Source: a virus (lineage: Duplodnaviria; Heunggongvirae; Uroviricota; Caudoviricetes). Taken from it: DNA of 13,684 nucleotides. The position numbers and the translations under genes were made by a program. Position 1 is the stretch's first letter, and each line of letters starts with the position of its first letter. The notes beneath the pieces are model-generated. The model ran no database searches. It worked only from the letters and a program-made list of their open reading frames with translations, and was not told the DNA's origin. Location of the stretch: IMG/VR virus record IMGVR_UViG_2563366959_000001, positions 1 to 13,684 of that record. One strand, written 5' to 3'. Below, piece after piece: positions 8,167 through 8,882 of the stretch.

Positions 8167-8194
8167 AAAGGCCTGCGATTACCAGCAGGCCTTT
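8167..8194 (-). terminator. Rho-independent terminator (tR2-like) in the early right operon
   Basis: Stem AAAGGCCTGC / GCAGGCCTTT (8167-8176 / 8185-8194), 8-nt loop, followed on the minus strand by TTATTT; overlaps stop codon of the HNH gene. Confidence 0.6.
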
Positions 8195-8804
8195 ATCTGT
8201 TTTTAACACGCTTTCGAGTCCTTTTAGATTTTTCCTTAAGATATTCCGCAAGTTTATCCTCATCATTATTAAATTGAGATAAAAGCTCATGCTCGCAATT
8301 AAGTGCTTTACTCGCATAAGTTCCATATAGTTTCTTTCTTGCTAGTGCTGCTATGAATGCTGCATCTTCTTTGCTATCGAAATACCCTAACGATATTGTC
8401 TTATTTTTATAACCAACATAAGACTTCCACCTGCCAGTTGGCTTATACCAAGACACTCCAATTGCACCGGATGTGTTTAATCTATTCCCTACAATGTTTC
8501 TTGCATTCTGCTCTTCTGTTGCCAGTCTTAGGTTTGAAATCCTATTGTCAAGTCTGTTCCCATTTACATGATCAATAAACTTAGGAGGCCATTTTTTGTA
8601 TACATAGAACCAAGCAAGTCTATGCGCCTTATACAAAACATTATTTATACTAATGCATATATAACCACCACTAACACCTCCAGCAATACTACCTTTTACT
8701 CTTACTACTGAATTTGTTTTTAGCCATTTAAATATTCCTGTTTCTGAGTCATATGATAATGTTGACAGAAGCTCATCGTGATCAATTAGTTTTTTTATTC
8801 GCAT
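8193..8804 (-). CDS. HNH homing endonuclease with C-terminal AP2-like DNA-binding domain
   Basis: HNH core IDHVNGNRLDNRISNLRLATEEQNARN; AP2-like block GVSWYKPTGRWKSYVGYKNKTISLGYFDSKEDAAFIAALAR; visibly AT-rich, no SD; inserted between ren and the terminator. Confidence 0.85.
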   Translation of the reverse strand: MRIKKLIDHDELLSTLSYDSETGIFKWLKTNSVVRVKGSIAGGVSGGYICISINNVLYKAHRLAWFYVYKKWPPKFIDHVNGNRLDNRISNLRLATEEQNARNIVGNRLNTSGAIGVSWYKPTGRWKSYVGYKNKTISLGYFDSKEDAAFIAALARKKLYGTYASKALNCEHELLSQFNNDEDKLAEYLKEKSKRTRKRVKNR

Positions 8805-8882
8805 AAAGAATATACTTAATAATATATACAGTAAGAACCATTAGTAACGATAACCCTGCTATTAGCTCAGTGATGTAGATGG

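Follow-up and report, generated by a model that had tools for sequence, protein, structure and literature searches.

The window analysed here, that is, the whole stretch of 13,684 nucleotides, is the early-right operon of a lambdoid prophage in minus-strand reading (Table 1). In gene order cI is followed by cro and cII, then by the replication module, whose final gene, ren, ends in a TGA overlapping the ATG of the micro-ORF ninA (ATGA). This ORF of 25-26 codons, which holds an intrinsic terminator, joins the nin region to the replication module (O-P-ren in this case), and three ORFs (7869-8147, 7522-7737, and 7329-7517) lie between the terminator and ninB. The published gene order is pR-cro-O-P-ren-tR2 (PMC3640518), and ninA is counted among the nin genes of lambda and P22 (PMC8022706, PMC3349717). 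In the window, ninA is interrupted by a cassette carrying an endonuclease gene, and a second nuclease gene lies further downstream.

Table 1. Features of the window discussed in the text (positions in the window)
Feature	Position	Strand	Basis or remark
cI	11587-12294	+	in gene order then cro, cII
O	9868-10806	-	
P	9170-9871	-	
ren, final gene of the replication module	8883-9173	-	phrog_142 Ren-like exclusion protein, E 8e-42
ninA, conserved first 9 codons (ATGACCATCTACATCACTGAGCTAATA), left insertion flank	8860-8886	-	comparison with lambda, 933W, HK022
Chimeric ninA' micro-ORF, 34 aa (MTIYITELIAGLSLLMVLTVYIIKYILYANKKTN)	8782-8886	-	translation; annotated HK022_56 in HK022
Inserted cassette, 665 bp	8195-8859	-	comparison with empty alleles
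HNH-AP2 endonuclease gene, 203 aa + TAA	8193-8804	-	ORF listing; phrog_99 HNH endonuclease, E 1e-71
HNH_3 nuclease core, aa 58-102	8499-8633	-	Pfam match
Predicted AP2 DNA-binding domain, aa 114-161, three strands then helix	8322-8465	-	Pfam, profile and fold matches
Intrinsic terminator at the tR2 position, hairpin 8167-8194 + U-tract	8158-8194	-	terminator scan, RNA folding
Displaced native ninA 3' part, codons GLLVIAGLFIWGRGK + TGA	8144-8192	-	comparison with empty alleles
phrog_343 gene, 92 aa from GTG start, first 3' of the terminator	7869-8147	-	equivalent to 933W L0091
ninB	6932-7429	-	
Second free-standing nuclease gene, NUMOD4 + HNH_3 + I-HmuI NUMOD-like, 40% GC	6337-6939	-	Pfam; between ninB and the Dam-like methylase gene
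Dam-like methylase	5813-6358	-	

A preliminary description of this locus had reported an AT-rich gene for a 203-aa HNH-AP2 protein without a Shine-Dalgarno sequence, and the domain searches, profile comparisons, and base composition bear this out. The HNH_3 family (PF13392; His-Me finger) matches over its whole model (positions 1-46 of 46), scoring 56.1 bits where the cutoff is 24.8. The AP2 family (PF00847) scores 28.7 bits (E 1.6e-6), which is under the Pfam cutoff of 33.3; a database protein 98% identical to this one (P0001) carries a precomputed PF00847 match, and a profile of 45 family sequences matches the solved AP2 structures of WRI1 (8e-12) and TEM1 (7e-7) as well as ERF096 and AtERF1. 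Thus, at the level of profile comparison, the AP2 assignment is independently confirmed by the family profile despite the sub-cutoff Pfam score. The same profile matches the HNH homing endonuclease I-HmuI (8.6e-6), which is a nickase. The structure model and fold matches predict an I-HmuI-like fold for the HNH_3 nuclease part and a three-stranded sheet packed on a helix for the AP2 part, the latter with profile-level homology to solved AP2 domains. In the alignment with I-HmuI, D78-H79 correspond to D74-H75 and N100 to N96, which we take to be the catalytic Asp-His pair and the metal-binding Asn of that enzyme; by this alignment all of them appear to be present in the 203-aa protein. Among the 45 family members, the HNH core residues H61, R62, D78, H79, N81, D86, N87, and N91 are invariant or nearly so; of these and of N100 and N103, which lie just 3' of the core, D78, H79, and N103 are invariant and N100 is conserved in at least 90%.

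The insert has a GC content of 34.1%, compared with 50.3% on the ren-P-O side and 45.5% on the downstream side, and the best anti-Shine-Dalgarno match upstream of the nuclease ATG is 3 of 6 positions. The nuclease ORF has its own start and stop codons and is out of frame with ninA. An intron-encoded gene of group I or II was considered and rejected, no Rfam family coming near its gathering score in 7800-9300; at E <= 1 that search returned only two chance-level matches (21-22 bits against gathering scores of 55 and 229). The gene is thus free-standing, outside any self-splicing intron or intein. No promoter of the nuclease's own was predicted on the minus strand in 6000-10000, and the scan as a whole predicted no more sites than it did in shuffled sequence. 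An NCBIfam search with the nuclease protein returned no match. A role in a defence system was likewise rejected, PADLOC giving only its 'homing endonuclease' model, weakly (E 4e-4). Beyond a cluster of 98%-identical proteins and one chimera, the nearest full-length relatives are less than 50% identical.

The boundaries of the insert were defined by comparison with empty alleles. Alignment with 933W, HK022, WGPS4, 1717, and lambda places the 665 bp after ...GAGCTAATA and before AGGCCTGCTGG..., with a junction ambiguity of 3-5 nt from AGG/CAGG at both cassette ends. Where the site is empty, the left flank (the ninA ATG) is 30 nt from the hairpin; where it is filled, the distance is 695 nt. A near-isogenic empty site was found in a prophage of E. 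coli SCPM-O-B-9504, which matches positions 1800-8192 at 99.86% and 8855-13534 at 99.72% and lacks the cassette only. The gene had been placed between ren and a tR2-like terminator; this position is correct, and the comparison adds that the insertion cuts ninA after codon 9-11, so the cassette lies inside ninA and not in intergenic DNA. The preliminary description overlooked that the target is the terminator-containing ninA and that NinA receives a new C-terminal tail from the cassette.

Empty sites show what was interrupted. In lambda, which indeed has no such gene in the ren-ninB interval, ren is followed by the same terminator sequence and the interval is 73 bp; the site is a 26-codon ORF (MTIYITELITGLLVIAGLFIWGRGKS) with the hairpin within it, its ATG overlapping the ren TGA and its TGA the ninB ATG. 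For 933W, record Y10775.2 annotates a 25-codon ORF as 'orf4; homologous to ninA gene' with a 'rho-independent terminator' inside. The first nine codons of ninA vary little or not at all among lambda, 933W, HK022, and over 100 IMG/VR loci; in the window a GGAG Shine-Dalgarno sequence lies 7 nt 5' of the start. Throughout the IMG/VR loci with a lambda-type terminator the ORF is open (~115 of ~115), the SD-like sequence before it is supplied by five unrelated upstream genes, the variation is mostly synonymous or conservative (five Leu codons, Ile/Val/Met exchanges), and its end usually overlaps or abuts the start of the next gene. By these features ninA looks like a real translated micro-ORF.

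The terminator hairpin has a stem of 10 pairs, six of which are G-C, closed by an 8-nt loop and followed by TTATTT, with a calculated RNA energy of -21.4 kcal/mol (z -3.7), and it is kept intact 3' of the insert. The nuclease stop codon had been said to lie inside the stem of a strong terminator: the strength of the terminator stands, and the TAA (8193-8195) gives two A's to an A-U extension of the stem and none to the G-C core. When sites were sampled by their left flank and those with a lambda-type continuation were set aside, a large third class of site emerged, which proved to be an alternative (type-2) ninA/terminator allele (MTIYITELITGAIYTVALFYWIKNEG...) and not an insertion; its stem has another sequence and its hairpin is equally strong (-20.5 kcal/mol, z -3.1). 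The two allelic forms of ninA thus differ in the sequence of their terminator stems and fold equally well (lambda, L005 468-548; L160 9125-9215). Because ninA is open, preceded by SD-like sequence, conservatively varying, and found in two alleles that fold equally well, sequence comparison suggests that both its peptide and its hairpin are constrained. As a side observation, the A-rich 3' end of the nuclease gene adds a plus-strand T-run in the filled allele (8158-8208), so that a terminator is called there on both strands; the empty allele lacks the T-run, and the A-U stem extension occurs in the filled allele only.

Insertion leaves two pieces of ninA. The 5' piece becomes ninA', in which nine native codons continue in frame into a hydrophobic tail encoded by the cassette, and which overlaps the nuclease ATG by 23 nt. 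By tblastn no copy of this tail was found without the nuclease gene, the only phage records having it being the 19 that bear the nuclease, and the ninA' stretch holds no significant RNA structure or hairpin (z -0.32). The 3' piece is severed from its start codon, and its TGA overlaps the GTG of the next gene; a 60-aa ORF at 8144-8326, almost certainly spurious, has as its last 15 codons this displaced NinA C-terminus, in frame 3' of the insert. In phages 1717 and Stx2a_F349 a copy of ISEc8 lies within 1-2 nt of the left cassette junction and has removed the ninA start (L003 about 3580-3631), and one IMG/VR locus carries a different truncation, within the NinA' tail (L141 about 1400-1470).

The cassette is present in 19 phage records at 99.4-100% identity, including HK022, PA28, and several Stx2 phages, and is absent from lambda, 933W, and most other relatives; many phage records, e.g., 933W, VT1-Sakai, and BP-4795, have a lambda-type empty site. 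Among 5,426 complete E. coli genomes the cassette was found in 126, at 152 places (up to three per genome, 97.6-100% identical), the lambda-type empty site in 1,841 (counting genomes in which 80% or more of the empty-site query is covered at some place; 3,007 places in total, up to six per genome), and the type-2 allele in 167. The cassette therefore occupies about 5% of the lambda-type sites, and about 95% are empty. A search of species-representative genomes, one per species, found it only in E. coli, a sampling that says little on host range; the sole such genome with the left end of the cassette is a draft contig of E. coli strain SCPM-O-B-8794. In every close copy found, the position is the same. 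A protein search of IMG/VR gave 30 loci with a 98-100% identical protein, and all 30 have the cassette at this position with the ninA start 82 nt 5' of the nuclease ATG, and the hairpin 613 nt 3' of it wherever the sequence extends far enough; HK022, WGPS4, 1717, and PA28 agree. The locus thus combines a present/absent polymorphism, one fixed position, conserved surroundings, and an intact empty allele.

That the nuclease gene is original at this position and was precisely deleted from lambda, 933W, and others is highly improbable. The presence/absence pattern by itself would allow it, and the 3-nt AGG repeat at both junctions could mediate such a deletion. However, the empty form is a complete translatable ninA coupled to both neighbours in many contexts, the base composition of the insert is foreign, and about 95% of the sites are empty; moreover, the nearest full-length non-chimeric relatives are less than 50% identical, so the nuclease gene has no deep lambdoid lineage.

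Taken together, the comparisons make it likely that the cassette is a free-standing HNH-AP2 homing endonuclease targeting a fixed position in ninA/tR2, cleavage and homing being deduced from sequence. According to this homing model, the nuclease gene would be transcribed from pR with O-P-ren, since it lies upstream of the terminator. Its translation is probably low-level and coupled to ninA', because the nuclease has no Shine-Dalgarno sequence whereas ninA' has one and overlaps the nuclease start; the missing sequence also makes nuclease expression uncertain. The target would be an empty lambda-type ninA/tR2 allele in the same cell, on a co-infecting phage or a resident prophage, which the enzyme would nick or cut at the junction CTAATA|ACAGGCCTGC or close by; cleavage some way from the insertion point is common among free-standing nucleases. 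The putative homing site would have as its left half the first nine codons of ninA (8860-8886) and as its right half the terminator (8158-8194), whose G+C-rich hairpin arm is probably what the AP2 domain recognizes. Recombinational repair off the cassette-bearing copy, through a 27-bp left and a ~45-bp right arm or through longer homology, would then copy the cassette in. Filled alleles would be immune, because their half-sites are 665 bp apart.

Selection on the protein was examined in 35 copies, all of them intact. They hold nine synonymous changes at 131 sites and nine nonsynonymous changes at 478 sites, i.e., a synonymous excess, and in the HNH core every change except that at codon 59 is synonymous. 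Since 35 of 35 copies are intact, the excess is synonymous, and the catalytic residues are invariant, the protein appears to be still under selection. The genomic surroundings of the copies are diverse. Upstream the cassette adjoins at least six different neighbours (five unrelated gene ends in the 30 IMG/VR loci, and ren in the window), among them three helicase or primase types, and downstream at least six unrelated ones (the same loci and the window). Empty alleles with the matching flank combination were found for four of the five combinations sampled, and the left-flank polymorphisms of the filled alleles (ATGACT.., ..CTGATA) differ between genomic contexts. Some E. coli genomes hold two or three cassette copies along with up to six lambda-type ninA/tR2 sites, and such multi-copy genomes would fit spread of the cassette between co-resident prophages.

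These data also bear on a passive alternative, that a gene which was once a homing endonuclease is now moved only by ordinary homologous recombination at the conserved ninA/tR2 linker. Even without the cassette, the ninA/tR2 block occurs in at least eight upstream and at least nine downstream unrelated contexts, so recombination there is frequent anyway, and the multi-context distribution of the cassette could in principle stem from ordinary recombination among cassette-bearing phages. The absence of a Shine-Dalgarno sequence and the occupancy of about 5% also suit a passenger; with 152 places in 126 genomes against ~3,000 lambda-type places, a strong drive might do better. We nevertheless regard this alternative as unlikely, given the intact copies, the synonymous excess, and the invariant catalytic residues; in addition, a passenger that splits the linker into arms of 27 and ~45 bp would need crossovers in very short homology. 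For the homing model, too, a conserved left arm of only 27 bp is little homology for repair to be efficient between phages whose replication modules are unrelated.

A domesticated function is quite unlikely, either as a weapon cutting the ninA/tR2 of competitors (marker exclusion) or as an AP2-mediated DNA- or RNA-binding modulator of tR2 termination. Most lambdoid E. coli prophages share the target, a genome having up to six such sites, AP2-domain phage proteins can be sequence-specific transcriptional silencers, and the stop codon and A-rich cassette end adjoin and lengthen the terminator stem. However, cutting a competitor is the same mechanism as homing and inseparable from it by sequence, a purely regulatory role would leave the strict conservation of the HNH catalytic residues unexplained, and 'homing endonuclease' is the only defence-search family that matched.

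The second nuclease gene of the window permits a look at the earlier suggestion that the region is a repeated target of two unrelated HNH endonucleases. The proteins are 31% identical in the HNH_3 core (E 5e-7) and in this part related; their DNA-binding modules differ, and to that extent the claim holds. The NUMOD4-HNH gene is present in 90 phage records and absent from 933W, WGPS4, 1717, and PA28. Because the records carrying it include some in which the ren-proximal site is empty (P27, F723, and Lys19259Vzw), the two elements are independently distributed. In 933W, ninB and the methylase gene overlap directly, and in the window the ninB 3' end beside the nuclease is of another allele than in 933W. 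At the ren-proximal site, sampling of ~150 sites by the terminator and ~120 by the left flank gave one nuclease lineage and one chimeric derivative; the sites sampled by terminator sequence were empty or cassette-filled, with no other insertion among them, and left-flank sampling showed no cassette in a type-2 allele. The 4.1-kb arrangement with both nuclease genes (window 5800-9900) occurs in none of the 5,426 complete E. coli genomes, the best matches there being 99.1-99.7% identical and lacking the 665-bp cassette only. The region thus holds two selfish nuclease genes, each with its own site, and the term 'repeated target' applies to the region only, not to an exact site.

The ninA/tR2 linker is a short block common to lambdoid phages with otherwise unrelated replication and nin modules. 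If it is the homing site, nuclease breaks could drive module shuffling in lambdoid and Stx phages, and altered termination at tR2, through the replaced NinA tail and the stop codon and A-tract set against the hairpin, could affect the timing of Q and Stx; we consider this extension rather unlikely.

Proteins with HNH and AP2 domains form an established family of homing endonucleases, and G+C-rich DNA is favoured by AP2 domains (PMC10448857, citing Magnani, Sjolander & Hake 2004, Plant Cell 16:2265). The closest described counterparts are the 'IPA-HNH' genes of ICP1-like vibriophages (Barth et al. 2023, PMC10448857), which likewise have an N-terminal HNH nuclease and a C-terminal AP2 domain, are free-standing in phage genomes, and tend to lie at the boundaries of exchangeable modules. 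In contrast to those genes, the window protein matches the canonical Pfam HNH_3 directly, its gene resides in temperate lambdoid and Stx phages, and the literature searched does not describe its insertion site, a micro-ORF with an intrinsic terminator inside. I-HmuI of Bacillus phage SPO1 (PDB 1U3E) resides in a group I intron and binds DNA via NUMOD and helix-turn-helix modules, whereas the window protein is free-standing, with no intron match, and would use an AP2 domain. The plant AP2/ERF domains (AtERF1, 1GCC; TEM1, 7ET4; WRI1, 7WQ5) have the same three-stranded sheet and helix, with detectable sequence similarity, but belong to transcription factors without a nuclease domain. T-even phages have the free-standing nuclease genes seg and mob; these and the NUMOD4-HNH gene of the window are, like the present gene, free-standing, lie within conserved phage genes or in the junctions between them, and differ in presence from one close relative to the next, but their DNA-binding modules and target sites differ.

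In GenBank the nuclease gene goes under 'homing endonuclease' (PA28), 'HNH endonuclease', or 'putative endonuclease' (HK022 NP_597900, as cited in the phage 1717 record); our literature search found no paper on the gene, its activity, its insertion site, or its relation to ninA/tR2. The HNH-AP2 class and the annotation of the gene were thus already known, and the site at ninA/tR2 is new to the literature searched. The locus gives an uncharacterised HNH-AP2 nuclease a concrete, easily tested candidate homing site, at about 40,570-40,640 of lambda, in the best-studied phage system, and study of an AP2-guided nuclease whose target is defined could shed light on DNA recognition by AP2 domains. A recent proposal has nuclease genes marking the recombination boundaries of phage genomes; the cassette is positioned in keeping with this, at the junction of the replication and nin modules in phages that carry Shiga toxin. 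Otherwise the cassette is a routine selfish element.

Finally, the chimeric relative mentioned above, P0004 (Logan SRR10380363 contig, L159 4001-4516), has a left junction and first 66 codons identical to those of the window gene. After the conserved AHRLAWF motif it continues as a different, higher-GC HNH-AP2 sequence about 40% identical, has no hairpin, and runs directly into rusA; from its sequence, P0004 looks like a recombination product of two nuclease genes.
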